Shown here piece by piece: positions 9,114 to 60,228 of a DNA stretch of 64,000 bases; positions within the stretch are counted from its first letter, which is position 1; every line of letters starts with the position of its first letter. Below the pieces are notes generated by a model. That model had not been told where the DNA came from and ran no database searches. It worked only from the letters and a program-made list of their open reading frames with translations. The DNA comes from Rickettsiales bacterium (GTDB taxonomy: Bacteria > Pseudomonadota > Alphaproteobacteria > Rickettsiales > RI-342): the NCBI GenBank assembly GCA_044368015.1, contig JBIPLF010000001.1, forward strand, positions 10,939 to 74,938, in the 5' to 3' direction. A program made the position numbers and the translations under genes.

Positions 9114-9204
9114 CGTCATTGCGAGGAGGTGAAGCCTCCGAAGCAATCCAGCAAAGCATCCGTTTTCTGGATTGCCGCGCTCGCGTTGCTCGCTCGCAAT
9201 GACG
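9114..9204. repeat. REP/MITE-like palindromic element, family 1 (CGTCATTGCGAGG ... CAATCCAG / CTGGATTG ... CTCGCAATGACG)
   Basis: Arms are self-complementary. Near-identical copies lie at 47423-47513 and, split, at 59876-60210. A diverged relative lies at 57593-57662. Confidence 0.8.
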
Positions 9205-9267
9205 ACGGGCCAAGGGACAGCTCTCCAGACAGATTTCCCGCAGACGTAGGACTAGGAGGGAAGTACC

Positions 9268-11826: not shown

Positions 11827-12588
11827 ATGTCTATGACGCGCTCTCAGAAACCAAAATCCCACATGCAGGGCTTCACCCTTGTCGAACTCTCCATTGTGCT
11901 CGTCATCATCGGCCTGATCCTCGGTGGTGTGATGGTAGGCCGCAGCATGATCCGCAGCAGTCAGGTGAATCGCGTCGCCTCAGACCTGCAATCCTATGAA
12001 GCGGCAATGAATATGTTTGTGGATAAGTATCGTGCCCTCCCCGGAGACATGACCAACGCCACTACCTTTTGGGCGAGTACCATCGTGGCCAATGGCGACG
12101 GCGACGGGCAGTTGGATTTATCAAGTGCAGCGAGCACTGCAGGTGAACGATTTGGCGCGTGGGAACAAATGGCGCTCGGCGGACTGATCAAGGGAACCTA
12201 TAACGGCCTGTCCGGATCCGGAGGGGCTGCGCATGCGGTTCCCGGCACCAACACACCAAAAGGATCTGTCTCCGCAAGCTCCTGCACTTGGTATTATATT
12301 GGAAATCAATCCGGGAACGCAGCGTATTACGATGGGTTTTATGGCAACGCCCTGTTCTGCGGCACCGCCACTACGGCCAGTGAACCAACCGCAGACGCCT
12401 ATACCCCTCAGGAGCTTATGGCGATCGATACCAAAATAGATGATGGTGTTCCTGGAATCGGGTCGGTACGATCTGCCCCCAATGACACCGCCTGTAGCAC
12501 GGGAACCCCTACCACAGGTGCCACCTCTACCTATGTCGCCACTTCCACCGCGATTGCCTGTTATCTGATCTTCATCAGTGGACTCTAG
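11827..12588 (+). CDS. Type IV pilin-like protein, paralog P1 (prepilin N-terminal cleavage/methylation domain)
   Basis: Short basic leader ending in G|[19 protein letters not shown] (class III signal, E at +5). A C-terminal Cys pair (ACSTG...IACYL) resembles a pilin D-region. It aligns end to end with the ORFs at 35858-36751 and 53342-54100. The start could be 11833. Confidence 0.85.
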   Translation: MSMTRSQKPKSHMQGFTLVELSIVLVIIGLILGGVMVGRSMIRSSQVNRVASDLQSYEAAMNMFVDKYRALPGDMTNATTFWASTIVANGDGDGQLDLSSAASTAGERFGAWEQMALGGLIKGTYNGLSGSGGAAHAVPGTNTPKGSVSASSCTWYYIGNQSGNAAYYDGFYGNALFCGTATTASEPTADAYTPQELMAIDTKIDDGVPGIGSVRSAPNDTACSTGTPTTGATSTYVATSTAIACYLIFISGL

Positions 12589-12678: not shown

Positions 12679-15600
12679 GTGGCTACCGGAATCGTGTTTC
12701 TTCTTGCAGGAGTGGCTGCCGCCGCGTGGGCGGCAACCCAGCCGCATGAGCCATTGGAATTTAAGGAGACCTTTCAGGCCCCTCTCTCGCATGTGCGGAT
12801 CGAAACCGAACCCACCGGCCCTGCCGATCGGGTGAGCTTCGCATGGGCGGACCCGGTGCAGTACCGCGTGTCCCGCGTGCATCCGCAAGCGGTGGTGGTG
12901 GAGTTCGACCATAACGCCATTCCACGCCTGCCCCCGATTGCCCGCACCGTCACCCCGCATCTGGAGCTGATGCGCAGCGAGAACGAGCAGGGCCGCCTTA
13001 CCATGGTGATCGGCACCGCTCCGGGAACGGACATCGCCTACCACCATGAAGGCAACACCGTGATGCTGGATGTGTTCCCCGCAAAGGAACGCCAGCAAAT
13101 GGCGGCCTATTGGCCCAAAGGCGACGAGGCCGAACGCACACAGCTTGCGATGGCAGAAGATGCTGGATTCAGGGGTCAGGATTCAGAAAATGGCATAGCA
13201 TTCACAGCCGGAAACAGGCAGATCGCCGCACCCGTGGCACCGGTGATGATCACCACCGTGGCGGAGGAAGTGCCGGAAGGCGCCGTGCAATCTGAAACCG
13301 CCGCAGACGCCATTGCCAAAGCCACCAGCGGCGAACCCTCCGCCCAGCCACCGATGGAAGTGCAGATTGCGCATAGCAGCGAAGCACTATCCCTCACCTT
13401 CCCCTGGCAGGAGAAGGTCAACGCCGCCGTGTTTGAGCGCGCCGGTGCGGTGTGGATGGTGTTTGACCAGCCCGCCAGCATTGCCATGTCGAGTCTGGGA
13501 GCCGTAGGCGGAAGCTGGGGCGTAGAGCAGCTTCCCCACAGCGGCAGCACCGTGCTACGCCTCACCGTGCCGGAAGGCTACCACCCCCACCGCGTCAGCA
13601 AAACCGGCAATGACTGGGTGGTGGAACTGGGCAAAGGCTACCGCCCGCCGGGGCATTCCACACCAGTGGAACGGAAAGCAGGAGATGAGAAGGAAGTCGC
13701 GCATCTGTGGCTTCCCGTCACCGATTACACCAGCCCCATCACCATCACCGACCCGGCAGTGGGCGACCAGATTGACGTGATTCCCCTACCGGAATCCGGG
13801 CAGGGCCTCTTCCCCGCACACCGCTATGTGGATGTGGAGTTGCTCACCAGCCATCAGGGGGTGGTGGTGCACGGACTCAGCGACCGCCTCTCCATGAAAC
13901 TGCGCCATGCAGGGGTGATGCTCACCGCCGAAAAAGGCCTGCAGCTTTCCACCGAAGTGCCGGAACTCACACCGCCTGCGGAGGCCCCTCATACAGACGA
14001 AACCACCGCCGCCCCTGCCGAGAGTGCTCCCACCCCGCCGGGTACCCTCCCCCGCTATCGCTGGCTGGAAAAACCCAGCAAATTTGCCTATGCCTATTGG
14101 CGGGGGGATCTGGCGCCCTCCTTCCTCAAGCAGCGCGAAACCCTGCAAGCGGCACTCGCCACCGAGATTGATGATACCAAGCGCTTTACCCATCGGTTGA
14201 GCCTCATCCGCTTCCTGCTGGCAGAAGGATTATACCGCGAGGCACGGGTGGAGCTTCGCACCGCACAAGCCGACCCGCAGGTCGCCACGCGTATACAGGC
14301 GATCGCCATGTATGAGGCGATCGCGAATGCGGAGGGCGAACGGTATGCCGAAGCCCTCACCGCGCTGGAAAAGGTCGGCATGGCGGAGGATCCGGAAATC
14401 TCCTTGTGGAAACGCGCACTCGCTGCGGCCGCCGGAACCGGCACCGAACCGGTGAAGCTGCTCGATAGCTGGGATGCCTATATCCGGCAATACCCGCCCA
14501 TCTGGCGCGAGATGCTGGGGCGCATCGCCGCCCGTCAGGCGGTGAATCTCGGCGCGGGCGACAGCGCCGAAGCGCTGATTGCCACCCTGCTGCAAGACCC
14601 GGAGATGAGCAGCAATGGCGTCAAGGAACTGACCTATCTGCGCGGCAAAGCCGCCGAACTGCGCGGTGACCGGGAGGCCGCGTTCGCCTATTTCAAACCG
14701 CTGCTGGAAGACTTTACCGAGCGCAAATACCGTGCCCGCGCCCAGCTTGCCTATATCCGCATGCTGCGGGAGGACGGCAAGCTCCCCGACGACAAGGCAC
14801 TGGACATGCTCGACCGCCTACGCAGCGTGTGGCGAGGCGATTTGCACGAGGCCGAGGTGCTACAGGATTACGGCATGATCGCGATCGCGCAAGGCAAACA
14901 TAAGGATGGCTTCAACGCCTGGCGTACCCTCGTCACCACCTTCGGCAAGGAGCCAATCGGCACGGAAACCGCGCAGGCGATGACCAGCAGCTTTATCGAC
15001 CTCTTCAACAAGGGCGGGGCGGATGCACTCTCGCCGCTGGAAGCGCTCAGCCTCTATTACGAATTCCGCGAGCTAACCCCGGTGGGCGAGGAAGGGGACC
15101 TGATGATTGAGAATCTGGCCGACCGCCTCGCCGCAATTGACCTGCTCGACCGCGCCGCCGCCCTGCTCACCCACCAGATCACCTATCGGCTGGAGGGGAT
15201 GCGGAAAGCGCAGGCAGGCGGACGCGTGGCCCTTCTCCACCTGCTCAACGAAAAGCCGGAAGATGCACGCTCCATTCTGCTCAGTACCGACATGCCGGAC
15301 CTCCCCGCCGAACTCGCCGAAACAAGGCGGCATCTGCTGGCGAAATCGCTGCTGGAACTCAACAAATACGACGACGCACTGGCCCTCCTCACCGGCGACA
15401 CCTCCGAAAGCGGCAATCTGCTGCTGGTGGACATCCTCTGGAAAAAAGGCGACTGGAAGGCCATCACCACCCATCTGGAAACATTGCTGGCAGGGAAGGA
15501 ATCCGGGAAGGAACCGCTCACCAAACGCGAGAGCGAGCAGGTATTACGCCTAGGGCTGGCCCATGTGTTCGCAGGGGATAACAACGCGCTTAGCGCCCTC

Positions 15601-15798: not shown

Positions 15799-17352
15799 TT
15801 ACCACACACCCAGCATCGCGGGGAGGAAGAACGCGCCAATCCCGGCAAGTGCTGTCAGCGAGAGGGCCAGCAGCATGAGGAAGTGGGCCCCCCTCTCCCT
15901 CTGTAACGCCTTCGGCATATCAGCCGAGGAGGTAAGGGCACCCTCTGAATCCTGAACCCTGAATCCTGAATCCCCCTCCCGCAACACCATCCAGAAGCGT
16001 AAGTAATAACCCGCGCTCATCAGAGAGGTAAAGAGCAACGCCGCCACCAGCACAAGATGCCCCTCCGCCACCAGCGCAGAGAGCATCTGCCATTTGCTCC
16101 AGAACCCATAGGCGGGGGGTAATCCCACCATCGAGAGCATCGCAAGACCAGCCATCGCGGCAAGTAAAGGGTGCTCGTGCGCCATCCCGCGCATCTCCGA
16201 AATCTGAGTGCGGTGCGTCACCGCATACAGATACCCGGCGACGAAAAACAACGTCAGCTTGGCCATGCCATGGGCGAGCATCTGCAAAAAGGCGGCGTGC
16301 AACCCAGCGGCGGTGAAAAGGCTCAGCATCGCCACCATCATTGCCAGTTGCGCGAGGGTGGAATAAGCGAGCATCCGCTTCAGATTCTCCTGCCGCCACG
16401 CCTGAAGGCTCGCCCATACCATGCTGATTCCGGCAAGCATCGGCAGCCACGCCCCGTTCCACCAGAAAGCATCTACCGCCCCCCGCAGCGCGTCCAGCCC
16501 AAACACATAGAGTGTCAGCTTGGCGAGCACGAAAATCCCCGCCTTGACCACCGCGACGGCATGGAGCAAGCCGCTCACCGGCGCAGGCGCGACCATCGCT
16601 GCGGGCAACCAGCGATGCAGCGGCATCAAAGCCAGCTTCGCCGTGCCGAACACACACAGGGCAAACATCCAGCCAATGAAGGCGGTGCTGGTATCCTCAC
16701 GCAACATCCCGCCGGGAGTAAATTCCAGCGTGCCGGTTGCCTGCCACAGCAGCAGCATCGCAGGCAGAAACAGCAGCAGCGAAGGAACCAGCAGACTGCG
16801 TAAATAGACACTCCCCGCTTCCTTCGTGCCATGGGTACGGCTATGCACCACCAGCGGAAAGGTGAGAAGCGTCAACCATTCATAGCCGATAAACAGGGTG
16901 AGGAGATTGGCCGCAAACGCCACCCACAACGCCGCCCCAACCGCCAGCGCCATCAGCGCATGGAACCGGCTGTGATGCTCCTCACGGTTTGCCCGCAGAT
17001 AGCCAATACTATAGAGCACCGTCACGGGCCACAGCGCCGCCACCAGCCCGGCGAACACCAGCCCCAGCGGCTCCAGATGAAAGGCAACGGAGAGTCCATC
17101 GGAAAAGGTAAACCACTCCCAGCGCGGGAAATGCACCGGCGGCATCCACAGTGCCATTTCCGGCGAACGATCCTGATGCAGCGCAGGCAGCAACCGCCAC
17201 ACCAGACAGGCCATCCCCCCCGGCAACAGCAGGGAAAGCGGCACCATCCCCAGATCGCGCAGCAGCGGCAAGCGACGCAGCAGCATCGCCCACAGCGCGA
17301 CCACGAGCGGAATCAACAGCAGCATCGGAATCAAATGCGCGGGGGTCATCAT
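15799..17352 (-). CDS. mnhD: Mrp/Mnh antiporter subunit D-like protein (NuoL/M/N proton-pumping family), second copy
   Basis: 517-aa polytopic protein with the Proton_antipo_M-type core (..GYEWLTL.., PLHRWLPAAMVAPAPVSGLLHAVAVVKAG). It has an ATGA overlap with the upstream paralog. The C-terminal region carries a repeat-derived hydrophilic insert. Confidence 0.8.
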   Translation of the reverse strand: MMTPAHLIPMLLLIPLVVALWAMLLRRLPLLRDLGMVPLSLLLPGGMACLVWRLLPALHQDRSPEMALWMPPVHFPRWEWFTFSDGLSVAFHLEPLGLVFAGLVAALWPVTVLYSIGYLRANREEHHSRFHALMALAVGAALWVAFAANLLTLFIGYEWLTLLTFPLVVHSRTHGTKEAGSVYLRSLLVPSLLLFLPAMLLLWQATGTLEFTPGGMLREDTSTAFIGWMFALCVFGTAKLALMPLHRWLPAAMVAPAPVSGLLHAVAVVKAGIFVLAKLTLYVFGLDALRGAVDAFWWNGAWLPMLAGISMVWASLQAWRQENLKRMLAYSTLAQLAMMVAMLSLFTAAGLHAAFLQMLAHGMAKLTLFFVAGYLYAVTHRTQISEMRGMAHEHPLLAAMAGLAMLSMVGLPPAYGFWSKWQMLSALVAEGHLVLVAALLFTSLMSAGYYLRFWMVLREGDSGFRVQDSEGALTSSADMPKALQRERGAHFLMLLALSLTALAGIGAFFLPAMLGVW

Positions 17353-18992
17353 CGTCCCTCCACCAGCGTTGCGGAGAGGGTGAATAGCCAGTCCTGAATC
17401 TCAGCGCCCCACAGCATCGGCAACCAGGAGAGCAGCAACGCTGCCCCCACACTGGCATAGAGGAAAGGGGAAACAGGAGGCGATTCCCCCTCAACCGGAG
17501 CCATCCACAGCGGTTGCATCCAGCGCAATACCACGCCCAGCGCCAGCAGATTGCCCAGAATCAGCGCCGCAAACAGGGCGTAATGCTCCGCCTCTATAAA
17601 CAGCAGCAGCGTTTGCCATTTGGCGAGGAAAGTCAGGCTGAGCGGCGCACCCAGAAACGCAAGCCACAACCCCACCACCATCCATCCAAACACCGGACGG
17701 GAATGGATACGCCACCCCCTGCCCGCTTCTAAACTCAGGAACAATCCGGTTTTACAAACCCCATCGGCCACCAGCAACAGCACCGCCGCCGCGATGGATG
17801 CCACACTCCCCATCCCCAGCAGCATCAAGGCCATGCCGGAAGTCGCCAGACTCGCCTGCCCCAGCGCACGCGCAGGCGTAGAGGCGCGCATTGCGAGCAC
17901 CCCACACCACAGCAGCGCCAACGCGCCACCCCATTGCATCACCTCCGGCAGGCTGCTTGCCTCCCATTGCTTGCTGCCGATCAGCGTAAACACCAGCCGC
18001 AACAGTAAACACCACACCGCTTTATGCGCGATACCGGAGAGCATCGCTGCGACAGGAGGAGCAGCCGATCCATACGCCCCCGGCACCCACAGCCCCAGCG
18101 GGAACACGCCCGCCTTGACGCATAATCCGAGCAGCATCGCAAGCCAGGCAGCGGTGATCGCGGGTGAACCCGGCAGGCTGTGCAGATGTTGCGCCACCGC
18201 GTCCAGCGTCAGGCTACCGGTGATGGCATAAAGCATCCCCACGCCCAACAGGTAAAACCCTGCCCCTAATGTATTGGAAAGCAGATAGGTAAAAGCGGCC
18301 TTCACCGCCCGCCGGTCCTGCGAGCAGGCTATCAGTGCCGTGCCCGCCAACCCGGCGATTTCCATACAGACAAAGGCATTGAAGAGATCGCCCGTGGCAA
18401 TCACTCCGCTCCACCCGGCGAGGAGGAGCAGGAAGAGGGAGGCTTTAAGGGAGTGGTGAGTGGTAAGTGGTAAGTGGTAAGTGTTGGACGCCCCCTCCCT
18501 ATCCCTCCCCCGCCTTGCGGGAGAGGGGACCGGATGCACCATCGCGTCCTGTATATCCGCGTTGCTTGCAAGGAGAGGCCGCTCCTCCGGTCCCCTCTCC
18601 CGCTTTAGCGGGGGAGGGATAGGGAGGGGGTGTACTGAATCCTGAACCCCGAACCCTGAACCCTGACTCCACGCCACCACCATCCCCATGCACCCAACCA
18701 GCAGCAGAAACACACTGCTAAGCGTGTCGATATGGAAGATGATCCCCATCGGGGCCACCCAGCCGCCAAAGCGATACCCCATCCCGCCATAGGTCCAGAC
18801 CATCGCGGCAAGGCACAGATTCACCACAAACACGAGCGTGGTGATAAGGCTCACCGCCCCCCACACCGCACGGGGTGAGCGCAGCCACAATAGCAGCGGA
18901 GCCAGCAGCAGCGGAATCAGCACCGGCAGCGCGGGCAGTTGCATCAGCGCCGCAGCCAGCCATCCGGTCGGGGTTGATAGAGTATGTTCCAT
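17349..18992 (-). CDS. mnhD: Mrp/Mnh antiporter subunit D-like protein (NuoL/M/N family), first copy, with a ~75-aa repeat-encoded insert
   Basis: 547-aa polytopic protein (DLFNAFVCMEIAGL, VPGAYGSAAPPVAAMLSGIAHKA). Residues ~109-185 are hydrophilic and are encoded by the composite repeat at 18453-18666. Confidence 0.8.
   Translation of the reverse strand: MEHTLSTPTGWLAAALMQLPALPVLIPLLLAPLLLWLRSPRAVWGAVSLITTLVFVVNLCLAAMVWTYGGMGYRFGGWVAPMGIIFHIDTLSSVFLLLVGCMGMVVAWSQGSGFGVQDSVHPLPIPPPLKRERGPEERPLLASNADIQDAMVHPVPSPARRGRDREGASNTYHLPLTTHHSLKASLFLLLLAGWSGVIATGDLFNAFVCMEIAGLAGTALIACSQDRRAVKAAFTYLLSNTLGAGFYLLGVGMLYAITGSLTLDAVAQHLHSLPGSPAITAAWLAMLLGLCVKAGVFPLGLWVPGAYGSAAPPVAAMLSGIAHKAVWCLLLRLVFTLIGSKQWEASSLPEVMQWGGALALLWCGVLAMRASTPARALGQASLATSGMALMLLGMGSVASIAAAVLLLVADGVCKTGLFLSLEAGRGWRIHSRPVFGWMVVGLWLAFLGAPLSLTFLAKWQTLLLFIEAEHYALFAALILGNLLALGVVLRWMQPLWMAPVEGESPPVSPFLYASVGAALLLSWLPMLWGAEIQDWLFTLSATLVEGR
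18453..18666. repeat. Composite repeat: (GTGGTRA)x4 + GC-rich inverted repeat (CCCTCCCTATCCCTCCCCCGC...GCGGGGGAGGGATAGGGAGGG) + (TGAAYCC)x4
   Basis: Read directly from the sequence. Related modules lie at 13164-13187, 15886-15985, 36598-36726, 39023-39144, 48818-48929 and 50989-51024. Confidence 0.85.
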
Positions 18993-21590: not shown

Positions 21591-21737
21591 TTCACCTCCC
21601 CCTTGATGGGGGAGGTCGGTGAGCGGCGTGAGCATCACGAATCGCCAGCGAGACCGGGAGGGGATGACGCCCCGACGTCATTACCCTCCCCCGGAATCGC
21701 AAGCGATTCCGAGCCCTCCCATTCAGGGAGGGGTGAA
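21591..21737. repeat. MITE-like element, family 2, with terminal inverted repeats TTCACCTCCCCC / GGGAGGGGTGAA
   Basis: The ~147-bp element is ~85% identical by eye to 59985-60133. It contains internal palindromes (CCCCCTTGATGGGGGAGG; GGAATCGCAAGCGATTCC). Confidence 0.8.
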
Positions 21738-35857: not shown

Positions 35858-36751
35858 TTAAATACCAGGAACGAATATCAACCCACACGCCACCCCTGTG
35901 TAAGTAGCCGTGTTATAACTGGCTGTACTGCCAGCAGCGGCAGCACCAGTCACGCAGTTTGGATTGTAAACTGCATGAAATGATCGCACCACACCCGTGG
36001 CAGGAATGCCATCATCTATTTTCTGGTCTATCTGAAATGCTTCTGCGGGAGTCAGCACATTACCCTGTGTTTCTGCCGTAGCCACTTTGGAGCCAAAGTA
36101 GACATGGTTTCCATAAAAACCATCATAGTTATAAGGACTGCCGGACAGGGCACCGTAGTAGTACCATGAAAAGCCAGTACCAGACAGCCGTCCCGCGGGA
36201 ACATTACTTCCTATCACCGCATCATGCGTACTTCCCGAACCACTCAACCCTGAATAGACTCCTTTTATCATCCCCGCCAATGCCATCTGTTCCCACGCCC
36301 CGAAAATTTCTCCCGCAGCGCCAGACGCGCTGGCCACGTTTAATTGCCCATTTCCATTGCCATTAGCTACGGCGGCTCCCCAAAAAGTGGACGCATTCGT
36401 GATGTCCCCGGGCAAACCTTGATACTTGTCGATAAATGTCTGCGTGGCAGACTCGTACGCCTGCCAGTCTTGTGCAACAGCATTGACCTGCATCGAGCGA
36501 ATCATGCTGCGGCCCACCATCACTCCGCCGAGAATCAGGCCGATGATGACGAGGACGATGGAGAGTTCCACAAGGGTGAAACCGGGAGAGGCAAGAACCC
36601 TCCCCCTGTGGGAGAGGGCAGGGTGAGGGAGCTTCGACAGCGCATGAGCCTTTTCCCTCACCCCACCCCTCTCCCACAGGGAGAGGGAGCTACCCCCTAC
36701 CCTACTGGCAACTGGCAACTGGCAACACATCGTTCCTCCCGCATGGCGCAC
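35858..36751 (-). CDS. Type IV pilin-like protein, paralog P2, with an abnormally long repeat-derived 5' extension
   Basis: The mature part G|[29 protein letters not shown]... is collinear with P1 and P3. No ATG/GTG/TTG lies within ~45 codons upstream of the cleavage Gly. The only in-frame starts (36751, 36730) sit beyond the repeat at 36598-36726. Confidence 0.65.
36598..36726. repeat. Composite repeat: GC-rich inverted repeat (CCCTCCCCCTGTGGGAGAGGGCAGGGTGAGGGA / TCCCTCACCCCACCCCTCTCCCACAGGGAGAGGG) + (CTGGCAA)x3
   Basis: Read directly from the sequence. The same CTGGCAA tract and palindrome type occur at 39023-39144. A half-palindrome matches 50989-51024 almost exactly. Confidence 0.85.
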
Positions 36752-38308: not shown

Positions 38309-39718
38309 GTGGAGCCGGAAGCACTCCACGCCCGCCTCACCGCTCTGGAACAACGCGCCCGTACCGGCGGGTATGACCTGAAGCTCACCCGGATGCGGGA
38401 TTTGCTGGAGCGGTTGGGCAATCCGGAAGCACAGCTCCCGCCGGTGATTCATGTCGCGGGCACCAACGGCAAAGGTTCCACCATCGCGTATCTGCGGGCG
38501 ATGCTGGAGGCGTGGGGCAAGCGGGTGCATGTCTATACCTCGCCGCATCTGGTGCGGTTCAATGAGCGCATCCTCCTCGCCGGACAGGAGGTAGACGACG
38601 CCACATTGGAAGCCGAACTCGCCGCCATTCAGCCCGCAGTGGACGCCACCAACGCCAGTTTTTTTGAGGCCACCACGGCGCTGGCCTTCCGCCTGTTTGC
38701 GCGTGTTCCTGCCGATATCCTGCTACTGGAAACGGGGTTGGGCGGCAGGCTGGACGCCACCAATGTGATTGAGAAACCGCTCGCCACCATCATCACCCCC
38801 ATCGGCATGGATCACACCGCCTATCTGGGGGAGACGCTCGCCGCCATCGCAGGCGAAAAGGCGGGCATCATCAAGCCCGGCGTGCCGGTGATCCTCGCCC
38901 CGCAAGCCCCGAAAGCGGAGGCCGTGCTGGTGGAAAACGCAAATCGTCTGGGCGCGCCCTGTTATCGTTATGGCGTGGAATGGGGGATGGAGGGGAACAC
39001 ACTGTATTTTCAGCACGCAGAGTTCAGGATTCAGGATTCAGAAAGCCCCCTCCCCGGAGGGGGGAGGGAGGAGGCAGCGCCTCCAAGAGAGAAGATAACT
39101 GGCAACTGGCAACTGGCAACTGGCAACTCAACCCTCAACCCTCATCACGACACCCTCCCCCCTCCCGCCCTCCCCGGCGCGCATCAGTGGCAGAATGCTG
39201 GCACGGCAGTTGCTTGTTGTCTGGCGCTGTGGGGGAGCGCCTTTCCGCCCGCCGCCATGCAGGCCATTACCCATGCCCGGTGGCCTGCGCGGTTGCAGTG
39301 GCTTGTGCGCCTTCCCTATGGCATCGCGCTTCCGGAAACGGCGCGTGTCTGGCTGGATGGCGGGCACAATCCCCATGCGGCGGAAGCAATCGCCACCTTC
39401 CTGCGCGCAGACGGCAAAAATTGCCGGTGTGTGTTGGTGTGTGGTATGCTGGCGGATAAGGATGTGGAGGGGTTTCTTAACCCTCTGCGTGCTATACTAA
39501 GCCGATGTATTGCCGTACCGATTGCAGGTGCAAGTCAGGCGATAGCGCCGGAAGCGCTGGCCAGCATCGCGCAAGGGCTGGGTATCCCGGCGGTCGCGTG
39601 CGATAGTCTGGAAACCGGGCTGCGTGAGGCGGTGCAAACGCGGGACGATCCCCGGCCCCTGCGGCTGGTGATTGCCGGGTCACTTTATTTAGCGGGGGTG
39701 TGTTTACGCGATGCATGA
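38309..39718 (+). CDS. folC: Bifunctional folylpolyglutamate synthase / dihydrofolate synthase, carrying a repeat-encoded insert
   Basis: VIHVAGTNGKGST (P-loop), LETGLGGRLDATNV and AGEKAGIIKPG. The C-terminal domain is present. Residues around [42 protein letters not shown] are encoded by the repeat at 39023-39144. Confidence 0.9.
   Translation: MEPEALHARLTALEQRARTGGYDLKLTRMRDLLERLGNPEAQLPPVIHVAGTNGKGSTIAYLRAMLEAWGKRVHVYTSPHLVRFNERILLAGQEVDDATLEAELAAIQPAVDATNASFFEATTALAFRLFARVPADILLLETGLGGRLDATNVIEKPLATIITPIGMDHTAYLGETLAAIAGEKAGIIKPGVPVILAPQAPKAEAVLVENANRLGAPCYRYGVEWGMEGNTLYFQHAEFRIQDSESPLPGGGREEAAPPREKITGNWQLATGNSTLNPHHDTLPPPALPGAHQWQNAGTAVACCLALWGSAFPPAAMQAITHARWPARLQWLVRLPYGIALPETARVWLDGGHNPHAAEAIATFLRADGKNCRCVLVCGMLADKDVEGFLNPLRAILSRCIAVPIAGASQAIAPEALASIAQGLGIPAVACDSLETGLREAVQTRDDPRPLRLVIAGSLYLAGVCLRDA
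39023..39144. repeat. Composite repeat: (TTCAGGA)x2.7 + short GC palindrome (CCCCCTCCCCGGAGGGGGGAGGG) + (CTGGCAA)x4 + (CTCAACC)x2.5
   Basis: Read directly from the sequence. It lies wholly inside the folC reading frame. Confidence 0.85.
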
Positions 39719-47422: not shown

Positions 47423-47513
47423 CGTCATTGCGAGGAGGCGTAGCCGACGTGGCAATCCAGCCAAAGAGCCGTTTTCTGGATTGCCGCGCTCGCGCTGCTC
47501 GCTCGCAATGACG
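47423..47513. repeat. REP/MITE-like palindromic element, family 1
   Basis: CGTCATTGCGAGGAGG...GGCAATCCAG..TTTTCTGGATTGCCGCGCTCGCGCTGCTCGCTCGCAATGACG. The right half is nearly identical to 9160-9204. Confidence 0.8.
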
Positions 47514-47571
47514 AAACCTACCATGCCTCCGTTACAAAATTCTACATTTCTACCATTCTGAAATTCTGACC

Positions 47572-48817: not shown

Positions 48818-48929
48818 CTCTCCCCTCCCGCTTGCGGGAGGGGGCAGGGGGAGGGTGTTCTTTCAATAACAAAGTATCATTTGTTTGCGACACCCCCTCC
48901 CTAACCCTCCCCCGCAAGCGGGAGAGGGA
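48818..48929. repeat. GC-rich inverted repeat of the CCCTCCCGC..GCGGGAGGG type (intergenic copy)
   Basis: CTCTCCCCTCCCGCTTGCGGGAGGGGGCAGGGGGAGGGTG ... CACCCCCTCCCTAACCCTCCCCCGCAAGCGGGAGAGGGA flanks an AT-rich 33-bp spacer, between argG and the tauE-like gene. Confidence 0.8.
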
Positions 48930-50106: not shown

Positions 50107-51873
50107 CTACCCCCGCGCAATCGGATAGCGCCAGTCGCGGCCAAAGGCGAGGTCTGACACCTTAATCCCCGGCGCGGCCTGACGGCGCTTATATTCCGCA
50201 CGAATGAGCATCTGCGCGGTGCGTTCCACGGTGGCGCGGTCGAAGCCTTCCTCCACCAGCCTATCGACGGATTTCGATTCCTCGATCATGCCATAGAGCA
50301 GGCGGTCGAGCAGCTCGTAAGGGGGGAGGGTATCCTGATCCGTCTGCCCCGGCTTCAGTTCGGCGGAAGGGGCCCGGGTCAGCACCCGTTCCGGAATCAC
50401 TCCCGCCTTGCCCACACCGATATGCGAGACGCCATTGCGCCAGTGGGCGAGCGCATAGACTTCCGTTTTATACAGGTCCTTCAGCAGGTTCAACCCGCCG
50501 CACATATCGCCATAGAGGGTGGCATAGCCCATCGCCATTTCCGATTTATTGCCGGTGGTGAGCAGCAAACTCCCCTCCTGATTACTCACCGCCATCAGCA
50601 ACAACCCGCGCAACCGCGATTGCAGATTCTGTTTGGTGAGGTCGGATAGTGCGGTGTCAGAGGTCGGCGCCAGCACGGGCGTGAGTAGATCGGCTGCCCA
50701 CTGCATCCCCTGTTGAATGGGGAGGCGGTGATAACGTATGCCGAGTATGTCGGTCAGCGTGCGCGCATCTTCCTTGCTGTCCACGCCGGTATAGGGCGAG
50801 GGCATCATCACGGCGTGGACCTGCTCCGGCCCCAGCGCATCGGCGGCAAGCACCGCGGTGAGCGCGGAATCAATCCCGCCGGAAAGCCCCAGCACCACCT
50901 TCCTGAAACCGGTCTTGCGGCAGTAATCGCTGAGGCCAAGCAGGAGGGCGCGGTACGTTTCTTCTAGGGGGGCGGAGGAGGAGGAACGCTCCCTCTCCCT
51001 GTGGGAGAGGGCCGGGGTGAGGGAATCATAAGCGCCGGAGTCTTCCCACACCCAGCCCACACCCACACGGAGAGGGTTCACACGCCCCTCAAGGGGGGGG
51101 CAAAGAACGAGCTGCGCCCCCTCCTCATTCGCCGTAAAATCCACGGCTGCATGGCAGGACTCAAAGCAGGGCAGCATCACCGGATCCTGCGCCTCGCCAC
51201 CGGCGAAATCGATACAGAACGATCCGCCATCGAATACCAGTTCATCCTGCCCCCCCACCTGATTCACATAGATCAGCGGCACGTTGGTCACGGCGACATT
51301 CTCCTGCGCCCTCAGCACCCGTTGCGCGGCTTTGTGGCGTGTGTAGGGCGAGGCGTTGAGGCAAATGAGCAATTCCGCCTCGCGGTCGGCATAGTGTTCG
51401 GCGAGGTCGGTTTCCCACATATCCTCGCAGATGAGAATCCCCAACCGCACGCCGCGCACCACTACCACGGCGGCTTCCGTGCCAGGCGTAAAGACCCGTT
51501 TTTCGTCAAACACGCCGTAATTAGGCAGGTGATGCTTCACATGCAGGTAATGGATCACTCCGCGATCGAGCAACAGCGCGGCATTGTAAAGATTCTGCCG
51601 CTGCACCCATAAGCCTCCCACCAGCAGGGCGGGGCCGCCGTCTTTGGTGATCTCCGCCAGATCGCGGATGGCCTGTATCGCCTGTTGCTGGAAATGCGGG
51701 CGCAGCACCAGATCCTCTGCCGGATAGCCGGTGATCGCCATTTCTGGCGTGACGACCAGACTCGCCTCTGCGTCGCGCCCCGCCTCCCACGCGGCGCGGA
51801 TGAGGGCGCTGTTACCCGCAATATCCCCCACCGTGGGGTTGAGTTGCGCCATCAGAATGCGGAAGGGGGTCAT
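50107..51873 (-). CDS. nadE: Glutamine-dependent NAD+ synthetase, carrying a repeat-encoded linker insert
   Basis: N-terminal CN-hydrolase domain (ICEDMW) and C-terminal synthetase domain ([30 protein letters not shown]). The interdomain segment ..[29 protein letters not shown].. is encoded by the repeat at 50989-51024 and its flanks. Confidence 0.92.
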
Positions 51874-53341: not shown

Positions 53342-54100
53342 TTAGAGGCCGGTGATGAAGAGAATTGGACAGGTAACCGCAGTAGAGGTGGTCAGATAGG
53401 TGGAGGTGGTTCCTGTGGTGGCCGTTCCGGTATTGCAGGTGGTGGCAGTATGTGTGGCGCGCAGGTTTCCCGTACCCGGAACGCCGTCATCCATCTTCAG
53501 GTCAATGGCGTAGGCTTCACTCGGCGTCAATGCGTTTCCGTAGCTTGGTCCATTGGTGGTAGCAAGACCAAACCATAAGAAGTTTCCATAGTAGCCATTG
53601 TAGTAGTCGGCATTGCCAGACAGATTACCATAGTACAGCCACGAATATCCTGAAGCAGATAAAGGGCCTCTGGGGGCGTTGGTTCCAGGCACGACATGCT
53701 CCGCACTACCTGCCCCTGCTAAGCCATTGTAAACCCCTTTGATTAAGTCCGCTTGAGCCATCTGTTCCCAAGCGCCCAGTTTCTCTCCAGCAGCATTAGC
53801 TGCCGAGGCGGAGTCCATCTGCCCATCACCATCACCATTGGCCACAATCGTGCTAGACCAGTAAGTGGTGGCGTTGGTGATGTCTCCGGGTATCCCCCGA
53901 TATTTATCGACAAACATCTGGGCGGCAGAAGCATACGCTTCCAAATCAGACGCCACGCGATTTACACCCGCGCTACGAATCATGCTGCGTCCCACCATCA
54001 CCCCGCCGAGGATCAGGCCGATGATAACGAGCACAATGGAAAGCTCCACGAGGGTGAAGCCCCGGCTGGACCGGTAGGAAACGGGAAAAGGGGTGGACAT
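53342..54100 (-). CDS. Type IV pilin-like protein, paralog P3
   Basis: AAGGAA precedes the ATG at 54100. The leader MSTPFPVSYRSSRG|[19 protein letters not shown] is followed by a C-terminal Cys pair. It is collinear with P1 and P2. Confidence 0.85.
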   Translation of the reverse strand: MSTPFPVSYRSSRGFTLVELSIVLVIIGLILGGVMVGRSMIRSAGVNRVASDLEAYASAAQMFVDKYRGIPGDITNATTYWSSTIVANGDGDGQMDSASAANAAGEKLGAWEQMAQADLIKGVYNGLAGAGSAEHVVPGTNAPRGPLSASGYSWLYYGNLSGNADYYNGYYGNFLWFGLATTNGPSYGNALTPSEAYAIDLKMDDGVPGTGNLRATHTATTCNTGTATTGTTSTYLTTSTAVTCPILFITGL

Positions 54101-54150
54101 GAGGGATTCCTTTCTTGTCAATTGTCCATAACCATAGCAACTTATCCCCC

Positions 54151-56208
54151 ATGCGCAAGATGCCAACGCTCACCGACCTCTTCCCCCGTGAACGCTGGGT
54201 GCTGTGGTTGCCGGTAGGACTCGGTATCGGGGCAGGGGTGTTTTTTACCCTTCCCGCAGACCCGCCACCTGCGTGGTTCTGGGCGCCACTGCCCTTGCTG
54301 CTGCTGGCGGTGATCGGCTGGCGGCGCATTCCGGTGCGGCTCGTGGGGCTGCTGCTCCTTTCGCTGACGCTCGGATTTTCCGCCGCCATGCTCCGCACCG
54401 AACGGCTCGCCACGCGGACGCTCGCCGAACCGCTCGGTCCGGTGACGCTCTTTGGCACGGTGGTGGATACCGTCCCGGCGCTGGAAGGGAAGGGGGATCG
54501 CCTGATCCTCACCGATATCTGGCTGCCGGAGATGTCAGAGGAACTCCGCCCCCAGCAGGTGCAGGCGAAGCTGAGAGGCGACAAAACCGCCTTTCCGCCG
54601 GGCACGCGGGTGAAGGCGCGGGTGAAGCTCTTTCCCCTGCCGCGAGCAGCACTCCCCGGAGGGTTTGATTTTGCGCGCAATAGCTGGTTCAAGGGCATCG
54701 GCGCGGTGGGATTTGCCTACGGCATGCCCGTGCAGGTAGAATCGAAATATCCGGTAAACCCAAGCCTTACCGATCGGTTCACGGGTATCCGCCAGCGTCT
54801 CACCCAGCGGATTGTGCAGGTGTTGCCGGGAGCGGAAGGGAGCATTGCCGCGGCGCTCATGACCGGCGAGCGCGCCCATATCCCGGACGCACAAAACGAG
54901 GCACTGCGGGTGGCGGGGCTGTCACATATCCTCTCCATTTCCGGGCTGCATATTGGTCTCGTCACCGCTGCCGTGTTTTTCGGCTTCCGCCGGATGCTGG
55001 CGCTGATCCCCGCTGTGGCGCTGCGTGTGGATAGCAAAAAAGCCGCGAGCGTGCTGGCGGCGGTGGCGAGTTTTTGCTACCTGATGCTCGCCGGGATGCC
55101 GGTGCCGGGGGTGCGTGCCTATGCCATGGCCTGTTTTGTACTGCTGGCGGTGCTGCTCAGCCGCAGCGTCACGCCGATCCGCATCCTCGCCTGGGCGGCG
55201 GTGCTGATTCTGCTACTGGTGCCGGAGAATATCTGGAAACCGAGCTTTCAGCTTTCCTTTGCGGCGACGCTCGCCATCCTCGCGCTCTATGACCGGGACA
55301 GGGAGCCGTTTGAGGAGCCTCCGGCCTTCTGGATCGGCAAGCTGTGGCGGTTTGGCTCCCGCTATTTCAAGGGGATTGTGCTGACCTCGCTGGTGGCGGG
55401 ATTCGCCACGCTGCCCATCACCCTCTACCATTTCCGCACCATGAGCCTCTATGGCGTGTTGGGGAATCTGGTGGGGCTACCGCTCACCAGCCTGTGGATC
55501 ATGCCCGGTGCGATGCTCACCTTCCTGCTGATGCCCTTCGGCAAAGAGGCGCTCGTGCTGCCCTGGATGGGCGAGGGGATCGCCACCCTGCTGCGCATCA
55601 CGGAATGGATCGCGGGCCTGCCGCTCGCCACGCTGTCGCTGCCTGCGCCGAGCCTTGCGGGGGTACTCGTCACAACCTTCGGCGGGTTATGGCTAATGCT
55701 ATGGACCGGGTGGGTGCGGTGGTTTGGTATCGTGGCTATCCTGCTCGGCATGGCGACCGGTTGGGAGCAGCACCCGCCGAAAATGCTGGTGGGTGAAAAA
55801 CACATCGCCCTGCGGCTGGAAGCGGGAGACTGGCTGTGGATCACCCCCGGGCGGCGCGGATTCGGCGAGCAGCAATGGGAGGAGTACTACACCCCTGCGC
55901 TCTTCCGCAAGGCAAAGGAAGATAAAAGCGGGGTGGTGACCTGTGACAAAACCCACTGTACCGTCACCGATGGTCCCACGCAGTGGTGGATACAATGGAA
56001 AGGGGATACCCCCGCCGCGACTGCCTGTAGTCATCACCGGATTGTGCTGGGCCCCAAGGTTTCAGGAGAGATTCCCTGCGGGATACAGGTCACCGAATCC
56101 ATGCTCCGGGTAAATGGCACCCATGCGTTGTATTGGGAGAATGCGAGCGGCGTTTCTATTCGCACCACCAGAGAAGAAACAGGCGCCCGTCAATGGCATC
56201 AAGAATAA
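54151..56208 (+). CDS. comEC: ComEC/Rec2-family DNA internalisation channel protein (no C-terminal metallo-beta-lactamase motif seen)
   Basis: Polytopic protein with the competence-domain block GLSHILSISGLHIG. The N-terminal region resembles the OB/DUF4131 type. No HxHxDH motif occurs in the C-terminal ~130 aa. Confidence 0.82.
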   Translation: MRKMPTLTDLFPRERWVLWLPVGLGIGAGVFFTLPADPPPAWFWAPLPLLLLAVIGWRRIPVRLVGLLLLSLTLGFSAAMLRTERLATRTLAEPLGPVTLFGTVVDTVPALEGKGDRLILTDIWLPEMSEELRPQQVQAKLRGDKTAFPPGTRVKARVKLFPLPRAALPGGFDFARNSWFKGIGAVGFAYGMPVQVESKYPVNPSLTDRFTGIRQRLTQRIVQVLPGAEGSIAAALMTGERAHIPDAQNEALRVAGLSHILSISGLHIGLVTAAVFFGFRRMLALIPAVALRVDSKKAASVLAAVASFCYLMLAGMPVPGVRAYAMACFVLLAVLLSRSVTPIRILAWAAVLILLLVPENIWKPSFQLSFAATLAILALYDRDREPFEEPPAFWIGKLWRFGSRYFKGIVLTSLVAGFATLPITLYHFRTMSLYGVLGNLVGLPLTSLWIMPGAMLTFLLMPFGKEALVLPWMGEGIATLLRITEWIAGLPLATLSLPAPSLAGVLVTTFGGLWLMLWTGWVRWFGIVAILLGMATGWEQHPPKMLVGEKHIALRLEAGDWLWITPGRRGFGEQQWEEYYTPALFRKAKEDKSGVVTCDKTHCTVTDGPTQWWIQWKGDTPAATACSHHRIVLGPKVSGEIPCGIQVTESMLRVNGTHALYWENASGVSIRTTREETGARQWHQE

Positions 56209-59875: not shown

Positions 59876-60210
59876 CGTCACGGCGAGGAATCGCAGACGA
59901 CGACCCGCTGCGCCAGCGCTAGCGCGGCGAGAGCAATCCAGAAAAGCATCTGTTCTCTATTACTTTCTACACCGCTCTGAGCGTTTCACCTCCCCCTCTG
60001 ATGGGGGAGGTCGGCGAGCAGCGTGAGCATCGCGAATCGCCAGCGAGACCGGGAGGGGGTGACGCAATGGTAGCAGTCACCCTCCCTCGGAATCGTGGAC
60101 GATTCCGCCCCCTCCCATTCAGGGAGGGGTGAAGAGAGGAGTCTGACAATCATCAGAAAACACTATATTTGCTGGATTGCCGCGCTCGCGTTAGCTCGCT
60201 CGCAATGACG
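59876..60210. repeat. Nested repeat: family-1 palindromic element whose loop is occupied by a family-2 MITE-like element (59985-60133)
   Basis: The left arm is CGTCACGGCGAGG...GAGCAATCCAG (59876-59941). The right arm is CTGGATTGCCGCGCTCGCGTTAGCTCGCTCGCAATGACG (60172-60210). The interior 59985-60133 matches 21591-21737. Confidence 0.75.
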
Positions 60211-60228
60211 GTTCGCTAACCCACCCCG

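Follow-up and report, generated by a model that had tools for sequence, protein, structure and literature searches.

An in-frame composite of hairpin repeats and heptamer tracts in an mnhD-like gene, with colinear copies in unrelated genes

In a 64,000-nucleotide stretch of a Rickettsiales genome (assembly GCA_044368015.1, contig JBIPLF010000001.1, positions 10,939 to 74,938; hereafter the window, in whose numbering all coordinates are given), a gene for an MnhD/MrpD-like antiporter subunit carries a 215-bp composite of heptamer tracts and inverted hairpin repeats that leaves its reading frame unbroken. We consider this segment to be, probably, one copy of a dispersed, non-coding and non-autonomous family of mosaic repeats that has colonised the genome and that resembles both REPINs, the hairpin-forming doublets of repetitive extragenic palindromes (REPs), and the small transposable elements with inverted repeats that are called MITEs. 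This supports the interpretation given in the initial annotation of the sequence, which had read the segment as a palindromic mobile repeat tolerated in frame by a conserved gene.

Structure of the composite repeat

Read on the plus strand, with the host gene on the minus strand, the composite (18452–18666) consists of a heptamer tract, a first arm, a spacer, a second arm and another heptamer tract, an arrangement already recognised in the initial annotation (for 18453–18666) and borne out by the sequence and by Tandem Repeats Finder. The first tract (18452–18483, (-); period 7, 96% matches) is (AGTGGTA)x4.6; its coding strand, (TACCACT)n, is translated as ..TYHLPLTTHH.., and while the plus strand of this tract has TAA stops, the coding orientation has none. 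Inverted-repeat and sequence comparison delimits arm 1 as a 47-nt REP unit, ACGCCCCCTCCCTATCCCTCCCCCGC-CTT-GCGGGAGAGGGGACCGGA (18488–18534), with an internal 11-bp hairpin, CCCTCCCCCGC-CTT-GCGGGAGAGGG, at 18503–18527. The 51-nt spacer between the two REP units (18535–18585), which encodes ..EERPLLASNADIQDAMVH.., has no second occurrence within the window. Arm 2, the 48-nt inverted partner of arm 1 (18586–18633), likewise has an 11-bp hairpin of its own, CCCTCTCCCGC-TTTA-GCGGGGGAGGG, at 18593–18618. The second tract (18635–18666, (-); period 7, 88%, unit CTGAACC) is (CTGAAYC)x4.6; its coding strand is (CAGGRTT)n, translated as QGSGFGVQDS.

The inverted arms show 96% complementarity over their outer 26 nt, and within the 146-bp core (18488–18633) both units pair into one stem of approximately 47 bp. 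RNA folding of a 231-nt stretch gave -137.6 kcal/mol, compared with -90.4 +/- 4.8 in 200 shuffles (z = -9.9), and DNA folding of the same stretch likewise gave z = -9.9. Perfect period-7 tandem runs number four in the window and zero in 50 dinucleotide shuffles, and the window shows no enrichment of other tandem periods from 4 to 12; in total, Tandem Repeats Finder reports eight heptamer tracts, with the units CAGGRTT, TACCACT, AACTGGC and CTCAACC. The composite structure is far beyond chance. The element has no open reading frame (ORF) of its own, and a promoter and terminator scan detected no signal inside it. Rfam, applied with gathering and with permissive thresholds, identified only one tRNA in the window, the element itself giving only unspecific matches to long hairpins (miRNA precursors) that stayed well under threshold.

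Insertion into a loop of an antiporter subunit

The host gene (17349–18992, (-)) encodes a 547-residue protein of MnhD/NuoN type (Pfam Proton_antipo_M, E = 4e-25) and is the last but one of a complete mrpEFGBCDD' cluster that adjoins cytochrome oxidase genes. The exact protein (P0001) is also recorded from JGI sample 3300059473 and at NCBI, on a 178,945-bp contig, and its closest relative among 5.8 billion proteins shares 41% identity with it. The ORF translation and a six-frame check confirmed that the composite lies wholly within this ORF without breaking the frame, as had been claimed; of the six reading frames through the element, just one contains no stop codon, and this one is in register with the host gene.

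Comparison with homologs locates the segment in the loop between transmembrane helices 3 and 4 (TM3 and TM4). From invariant D89 to G201 the query has 111 residues, compared with 48–57 (median 52) in 83 homologs, so that the loop is lengthened by about 59 residues relative to these homologs and to solved MrpD structures. In PDB entry 6z16_D (MrpD), query residues 19–103 correspond to chain residues 4–89 and query residues 185–497 to chain residues 111–432; a match to 6u8y_H also places the insertion relative to the MrpD family. The expectation that this hydrophilic stretch stands where the family has only a short loop is therefore confirmed by the alignment with homologs. In an AlphaFold2 model built from an 84-sequence alignment (predicted local distance difference test score, pLDDT, 87.5; predicted template modelling score, pTM, 0.88), TM3 and TM4 are predicted as helices at residues 90–109 and 176–199. 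The 10-residue blocks from about 111 to 180 have mean pLDDT values of 50–64, while the adjoining blocks reach 94 and 96 and most others exceed 90. The model thus predicts a low-confidence loop on an otherwise confident fold. The insert contains eight positive and eight negative residues; as its charges are balanced, the positive-inside rule gives no membrane side for the TM3–TM4 loop.

The rest of the gene has the features of a coding sequence. E211, K293 and K414, which are invariant or nearly invariant in the family, are retained in the host protein. The G+C contents at the three codon positions are 0.64/0.47/0.77 and 0.63/0.50/0.73 in the two gene flanks, which is the pattern of other genes in the window, and are flatter in the insert (0.68/0.53/0.66), which also interrupts the AT skew of the gene. 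By alignment and model, the segment is inserted in a loop, and the host gene retains the appearance of a functional one.

A segment excised from the RNA, as an intron is, or from the protein, as an intein is, could also interrupt conserved genes without breaking the frame. However, its 72 residues are far below the size of an intein and lack the boundaries Cys/Ser/Thr...His-Asn, Rfam yielded only the sub-threshold generic long-hairpin matches mentioned above, and selection for an open frame would be unnecessary if the segment were spliced out. Its size, its ends and the requirement for an open frame led us to reject an intron or intein identity, to which we assign a negligible probability.

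Full copies in thrB, qor and an IMPase-family gene

An exhaustive phmmer search of 1.84 billion cluster representatives with the 86-residue insert region returned four proteins only: P0001 itself; P0241, the product of thrB, a type II homoserine kinase (E = 1.7e-17; query 5–77 matching residues 239–312); P0242, the product of qor, an NADPH:quinone reductase (query 6–69, residues 10–78); and P0243, of the inositol-monophosphatase (IMPase) family (query 5–77, residues 131–202). P0241 and P0243 come from the same sample as the target, on other contigs of 194,445 and 202,215 bp, and P0242 comes from a 63,695-bp contig of NCBI assembly GCA_041447055.1. Further copies of the modules elsewhere in the genome had been anticipated; what was found is the whole composite, colinear and in frame, in three unrelated genes that belong to the same metagenome-assembled genome.

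The four inserts are colinear from end to end: QGSGF(G/R)xQ(D/G).., from the (CAGGRTT) tract, is followed by PLPIPPPLxRERGPEE, from the first unit, by the spacer, by HPVPSPAxRGRDREG, from the second unit, and by a second heptamer peptide. The left heptamer tract has equal length and phase in all four full copies. The last peptide has the seven-residue signature of another heptamer array, TYHLPLTT in the target and HPSSLIPH in P0241; back-translation of the latter suggests (CATCCCT)n. Across the four copies the arms are better conserved than the spacer, which is recognisably kept in the thrB copy, and the outer flanks are unrelated.

The mnhD segment, then, is no ancestral loop. A functional MnhD loop specific to this lineage, whether ancestral or adaptive, that is no repeat copy would accord with the variable length of the family loop (48–57 residues). 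The segment is absent, however, from all 83 homologs, the same sequence stands in thrB, qor and an IMPase-family gene, its DNA is palindromic, and its composition is unlike that of the rest of the gene; we consider this explanation exceedingly improbable.

From one hairpin loop of P0243 to the other, the peptide is QAGEGTGGEASP...RDGASGPLSR (AGEGTGG.ASP...RDGASGPLSR), which is frame 0 of the target, a neighbouring frame, and the common frame is regained at the second loop, just ahead of a frame-0 stop codon. The frame has therefore stayed open through paired changes of loop length, although the peptide is altered, which, as far as the sequences can tell, argues that it is the open frame and the DNA palindrome that are preserved and not the amino acid sequence. 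Such copies offer natural evidence on the target of selection, as this one switches frame inside the element and then returns.

A functional device could also be considered, either a heptamer slippage switch for phase variation or a long hairpin acting as an mRNA-level regulator of mrp. One unit more or less shifts the frame by one, heptamer repeats are known contingency loci of Haemophilus (PMC8262952), and the mRNA hairpin is very stable (-137.6 kcal/mol). Conversely, the tracts are short (4.6 units) and imperfect, and the equal length and phase of the left tract in the four full copies argues against frequent slippage. Furthermore, on/off switching makes little sense in housekeeping genes such as folC, nadE (both discussed below) and thrB, and the element has no promoter-like or terminator-like signal. 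We regard such a device as improbable.

When all insert peptides were joined into one chimeric probe, a word-indexed search of proteins scored nothing. A metagenome scan for the junction GGGAGGGGG N2-8 CTGAAYCCTGAA produced seven matches, almost all of them due to chance and in unrelated contigs of low GC; it did not recover the source contig.

The qor copy is part of a larger N-terminal mosaic of about 95 residues, in which the first arm is split by six extra residues and an additional unit, ALTPPLSQRERE, follows that is like REP_B, the REP variant of the window described below. One gene caller began the qor protein downstream of the insert (P0245, 296 residues).

Related modules within the window

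The window contains related modules at six other loci, where the initial annotation had counted six or more; five of these had been placed inside reading frames, whereas only four of the six prove to lie within real genes, the other two being intergenic or in a 5' leader. With the target included, five of seven loci are within genes. In mnhD2, the gene for a second MnhD paralog of 517 residues, (CAGGRTT)x4 together with a small hairpin and half of a REP (15880–15975, (-)) read GDSGFRVQDSEGALTSSADMPKALQRERGAHF in the loop ahead of the last helices. A lone heptamer tract, GGATTCA-like x3 (13159–13190, (+)), reads DAGFRGQDSE in a 1037-residue ORF.

The folC insert (39018–39176, (+)) is a 159-nt mosaic of (TTCAGGA)x3, a GC hairpin, (AACTGGC)x4.6, (CTCAACC)x3 and a C-rich half REP, and shares with the mnhD target the junction between REP unit and heptamer tract, GGGAGGGGG-N4-CTGAATCCTGAA. 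Alignment with nine FolC homologs, in which the loop concerned is short, puts the added length at about 40 residues. The FolC homologs P0123 and P0174, from other organisms, have REP-like peptides of their own (SPIGGGLGWG...PPPNLPPNGEG; PPQAREGRVGAAEAG), which occupy the same surface loop as the folC insert of the window; this suggests that one permissive FolC site may have been colonised recurrently.

In nadE, the REP variant termed REP_B, together with a CCCACAC-type short repeat (50985–51068, (-)), lies in an interdomain linker; query residues 248–305 correspond to chain residues 265–282 of PDB entry 4f4h. The two remaining loci are a REP_B doublet with (ACTGGCA)x3 in the interval between a pilin-like gene and fumC (36584–36726), which is intergenic or in a 5' leader, and an intergenic doublet of the target's REP units between argG and tauE (48818–48927), in the opposite (tail-to-tail) order and with an unrelated AT-rich spacer. 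The ORFs that span these two loci are over-extended, as the FumC domain begins at residue 202 and the pilin methylation motif lies at 57–78. At 36581–36623, what is probably the start and leader peptide (VLASPG|FTLVE) of the pilin-like gene overlaps with the end of the REP variant, so that the repeat may have supplied part of this signal peptide.

The modules at each locus of the window have an order and content of their own. The strand of the tracts within genes does not vary: in the target, mnhD2, folC and the 1037-residue ORF, the coding strand of TGAAYCC-type tracts is always GGRTTCA and reads GF(R/G)xQDS, whereas the opposite strand has TGA in every unit. At least eight genes keep their frame through such inserts (the target, thrB, qor, the IMPase-family gene, folC, nadE, mnhD2 and the 1037-residue ORF). 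The affected genes include central ones (folC, nadE, thrB and the Mrp antiporter subunit), and one insert stands within a polytopic membrane subunit. Such inserts inflate protein lengths and can appear as spurious Pro/Gly/Arg-rich "domains" in annotation and protein clustering.

If the host genes were dying, the open frame would be due to chance and the insert would mark a pseudogene under weak selection. The high intragenic share (four of the six other loci), as in reductive genomes such as those of Rickettsia, would agree with this, as would the strong divergence of P0001 (no more than 41% identity to any homolog). Opposed to it are the single open frame among six, which is the one used, the frames kept through inserts in at least eight genes, the conserved Glu and Lys residues, coding-type composition and confident AlphaFold2 fold of the host protein, and the frame regained in P0243 via paired indels. 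We therefore think it quite improbable that the inserts mark decaying genes.

The host has 58% G+C, with respiratory, pilus and competence genes present. The best named relatives of its FolC share 44–47% identity and belong to free-living genera of the Alphaproteobacteria (Amphiplicatus, Oceanibacterium, Kordiimonas, Variibacter), consistent with an alphaproteobacterial host; given this distance, we take the host to be uncultured and to branch deeply within the class.

The hairpin core in other bacteria

The 21-mer CCCTCCCTAWCCCTCCCCCGC of the hairpin unit is present in at least 120 stretches of species-representative genomes. Among the matches listed, it is almost always followed by a loop and GCGGGRGAGGG, often in the same head-to-head doublet; approximately 85 of these stretches are from Alphaproteobacteria, and about one-third of the total are from Azospirillum. 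The other hosts among the matches listed are Pseudomonas, Steroidobacter, Lysobacterales, Thiothrix, two Pasteurellaceae isolates and Betaproteobacteria, as well as Desulfuromonadales, Abditibacterium (Abditibacteriota), Elusimicrobiota, Anaerolineales (Chloroflexota) and Acidimicrobiia (Actinomycetota). The two Pasteurellaceae isolates that carry the unit (L045, L092) are AT-rich. Among the 72,556 plasmid records searched, 35 Azospirillum replicons matched the target, at 203 places in all; the longest single-piece Azospirillum matches cover only query positions 46–186, and the heptamer tracts are therefore absent there.

By sequence, the hairpin core belongs to a family of REP doublets that is abundant in Azospirillum and present across several phyla. 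REP motifs have been reported to differ between taxa (PMC12306157), and the breadth of this unit across phyla is unusual for a REP motif and at odds with the common view of REPs as specific to lineages.

Of 123 copies in other genomes, at least seven are in frame within ORFs whose G+C contents at the three codon positions follow a coding-type pattern. In-frame copies of the hairpin family were noted in the alphaproteobacterial stretches L023, L053, L090, L099, L116 and L118. One such ORF resembles E2 acyltransferase by sequence, with the copy in an apparent linker, and another resembles ribonucleotide reductase, with the copy at an identical site in two genomes. An Azospirillum oryzae tetratricopeptide repeat protein is annotated straight through a doublet (L128, 1501–1625).

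Heptamer arrays, on the other hand, are rare at the core loci of other genomes, with about eight in 897 kb compared with eight in the 64-kb window, and heptamer flanks therefore appear to be specific to this lineage. Paired inverted heptamer arrays surround 80–150 nt of intergenic DNA in Lysobacterales and Steroidobacter metagenome-assembled genomes and in one soil contig, whose unit is CTGAACC (L029 2894–3036, L039 4709–4852, L071 3641–3802, L121 100–270), and an 18-unit AGCGGTT array adjoins a REP doublet in L100 (3709–3838).

Comparison with known repeat systems

The Rickettsia palindromic elements (RPE-1 to RPE-8) are the first in-frame palindromic repeats described, according to the accounts that cite Ogata et al. 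2000 (PMC3184786, PMC3733652). Di Nocera et al. 2013 (PMC3733652) identified RPE-4 and RPE-6 as REPs with a CGTC tag and showed that REP singles, dimers and clusters encode 20–82 residues within ORFs of many species. While in-frame palindromes are indeed known from Rickettsia, as the initial annotation stated, they are not confined to it, as the latter source and the in-frame annotation in Azospirillum oryzae make evident. The present element is like the RPEs in core size (approximately 105–146 bp, where RPEs are palindromes of about 100–150 bp), in its long stable palindrome, in its many dispersed copies, in its alphaproteobacterial host, and in having unbroken in-frame copies in unrelated housekeeping genes with the peptide outside the conserved fold. 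Unlike the RPEs, to which no sequence relation was seen, short of a direct comparison with the RPE consensus sequences, it lacks a CGTC/GTAG tag, has heptamer tracts, of which the RPEs have none, and resides in a host other than Rickettsia, with 58% G+C and a genome that is not evidently reduced. Protein-coding palindromes are thereby extended beyond Rickettsia to an environmental, high-GC, deep-branching alphaproteobacterium.

REP doublets that form replicative units together with REP-associated tyrosine transposases (RAYTs) are known as REPINs (Bertels and Rainey 2011, PMC3116915). Two inverted REP hairpins with a short spacer that form one long fold, and the occurrence of singles, head-to-head and tail-to-tail dimers, are common to REPINs and the present element. 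Neither the copies of the window nor the 123 copies in other genomes, however, conserve a GTAG or CGTC tag, and no RAYT was seen among the main ORFs of the window. In further contrast to REPs, which are mostly extragenic, five of the seven window loci are intragenic, the core sequence is common to several classes and phyla, and the flanks are heptamer tracts.

Bacterial MITEs within genes include the enterobacterial RU-1/2/3 (PMC2759123) and the Coxiella QMITEs (PMC5896051). The present element resembles MITEs in its inverted repeats (arms of 47–48 nt), in its length of 215 bp (within the range of 50–500 bp) and in having no transposase gene, its heptamers lying outside the inverted repeats; like gene-borne MITEs, some of which carry open frames and extend proteins, it is short and non-autonomous. 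It differs from MITEs in showing no visible target-site duplication at the one copy compared as DNA, in having no known parent insertion sequence and in having heptamer arrays as mosaic partners. Mosaics of REP units with other short motifs are also found in the bacterial interspersed mosaic elements (BIMEs) of E. coli. In summary of these comparisons, the element is a REPIN or MITE in structure and an RPE in behaviour, and departs from REPs in its lack of a tag and its intragenic positions.

Heptameric microsatellites are over-represented in many bacteria, among them Xanthomonas (GGGAATC), Nostoc (GGGGAYT), Calothrix and Beggiatoaceae (TAACTGA); some arrays are intragenic, paired inverted arrays occur in Xanthomonas, and it has been proposed that seven nucleotides correspond to the polymerase footprint, which would favour slippage (PMC4692102, PMC4679880). 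Similar to these simple sequence repeats and to the short tandemly repeated repetitive (STRR) sequences, the present tracts are short arrays of at least three units at many loci, occur above chance, comprise several unit types per genome and are in part intragenic. They differ in their units (CAGGRTT, TACCACT, AACTGGC and CTCAACC) and in that most arrays abut a REP hairpin and would be translated. Nor are these units known as STRR units of cyanobacteria, and the host is an alphaproteobacterium.

The initial annotation knew of no described element that combines palindrome and heptamers in an alphaproteobacterium, and the heptamer-microsatellite and REP/RPE literature compared reports neither a physical link between a heptamer array and a REP doublet nor such a composite translated within genes, and a literature search by sequence strings gave unrelated eukaryotic matches only. 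As in-frame palindromes and heptamer microsatellites are each already described, the novelty lies in the joining of heptamer tracts to the palindrome and not in the principle. The link between REP hairpin and heptamers offers a testable lead on the origin of such microsatellites.

Origin and maintenance of the composite

We propose that the core is a REP doublet, made up of two inverted 47-nt units with 11-bp hairpins of their own and a spacer of about 50 nt, which in this lineage is bordered at one end by a constant (CAGGRTT)~4.6 tract and at the other by heptamers that vary between copies. Copies might land anywhere, and purifying selection would remove all but a subset, the survivors being those whose length is a multiple of three, whose strand and frame are free of stop codons, and which lie in a loop or linker. 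There, a disordered Pro/Gly/Arg/Ser-rich peptide would be harmless, a mere passenger. Spread would most likely depend on an enzyme that acts in trans and binds to the hairpins when the DNA is single-stranded, in the manner of the REPIN/RAYT or IS200/IS605 systems. As to the heptamer tracts, both their origin and their variation would most likely be due to the polymerase slipping at the base of the stable hairpin. As seven equals one modulo three, the gain or loss of one heptamer unit could restore a broken frame.

Several points weigh against this proposal. The full copies are only 41–60% identical as peptides and therefore do not demonstrate recent mobility. The copies in thrB, qor and the IMPase-family gene were compared as proteins, and at the single full copy compared as DNA no direct repeat indicative of a target-site duplication is evident at the flanks. 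No transposase, RAYTs included, was found among the approximately 45 ORFs of the window. A perfect RNA duplex of 47 bp could be a target of RNase III and hence costly to the mRNA. Moreover, translation of the insert into a disordered loop is presumed, on the strength of the open frames and of what is described for Rickettsia. Finally, the differing module order at the window loci and the differing second heptamer fit local accretion equally well.

By local accretion we mean that REP units and heptamer microsatellites are separate entities, brought together by hairpin-promoted slippage or mutual targeting into mosaics like the BIMEs. Consistent with this, order and content of the modules vary from locus to locus, the doublet at 48818 has the target's units reversed around an unrelated spacer, a heptamer tract stands alone at 13159–13190, the second heptamer varies between full copies (TACCACT in the target, inferred CATCCCT in P0241), and the Azospirillum cores lack heptamers. 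However, four copies in unrelated genes have the left tract (QGSGF...), its phase, the arms and a recognisable spacer in identical order, and the REP–heptamer junction is common to the target and folC. Local accretion is a serious possibility, but a clearly less probable one than a composite that spreads as a unit. Both processes may be in play, a moving unit being joined to continually changing flanks.

More speculatively, the GC hairpin unit might be a horizontally spreading, pan-bacterial REP family that routinely colonises coding sequences, is mobilised by an enzyme and has gained, in this lineage, heptamer arrays that (again, seven being one modulo three) could reset the frame after insertion. 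The composite would then be a self-correcting colonist. We consider this unlikely.

Other repeats and pilin-like genes of the window

A second repeat family is represented at 9114–9205, 47423–47514 and 60168–60227 (CGTCATTGCGAG...CTCGCAATGACG) by 92-nt palindromes that are 88% alike. It fits the superfamily of REPs with a CGTC tag (Di Nocera et al.), and all of its copies are intergenic; in L001, a stretch of another genome, a copy of the GC hairpin is nested inside an element of this family and divides it. Also intergenic are the two copies (21598–21737 and 59993–60133, 87–92% alike) of a third repeat, which is about 140 nt long and contains three GC hairpins.

The window also encodes three pilin-like paralogs with N-terminal methylation motifs (11827–12588, 35858–36751 and 53342–54166). 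These account for long inverted and direct repeats of 70–74% identity (11869–12275 versus 53655–54062 and 36379–36583), and they adjoin tad/cpa-type pilus genes and comEC.

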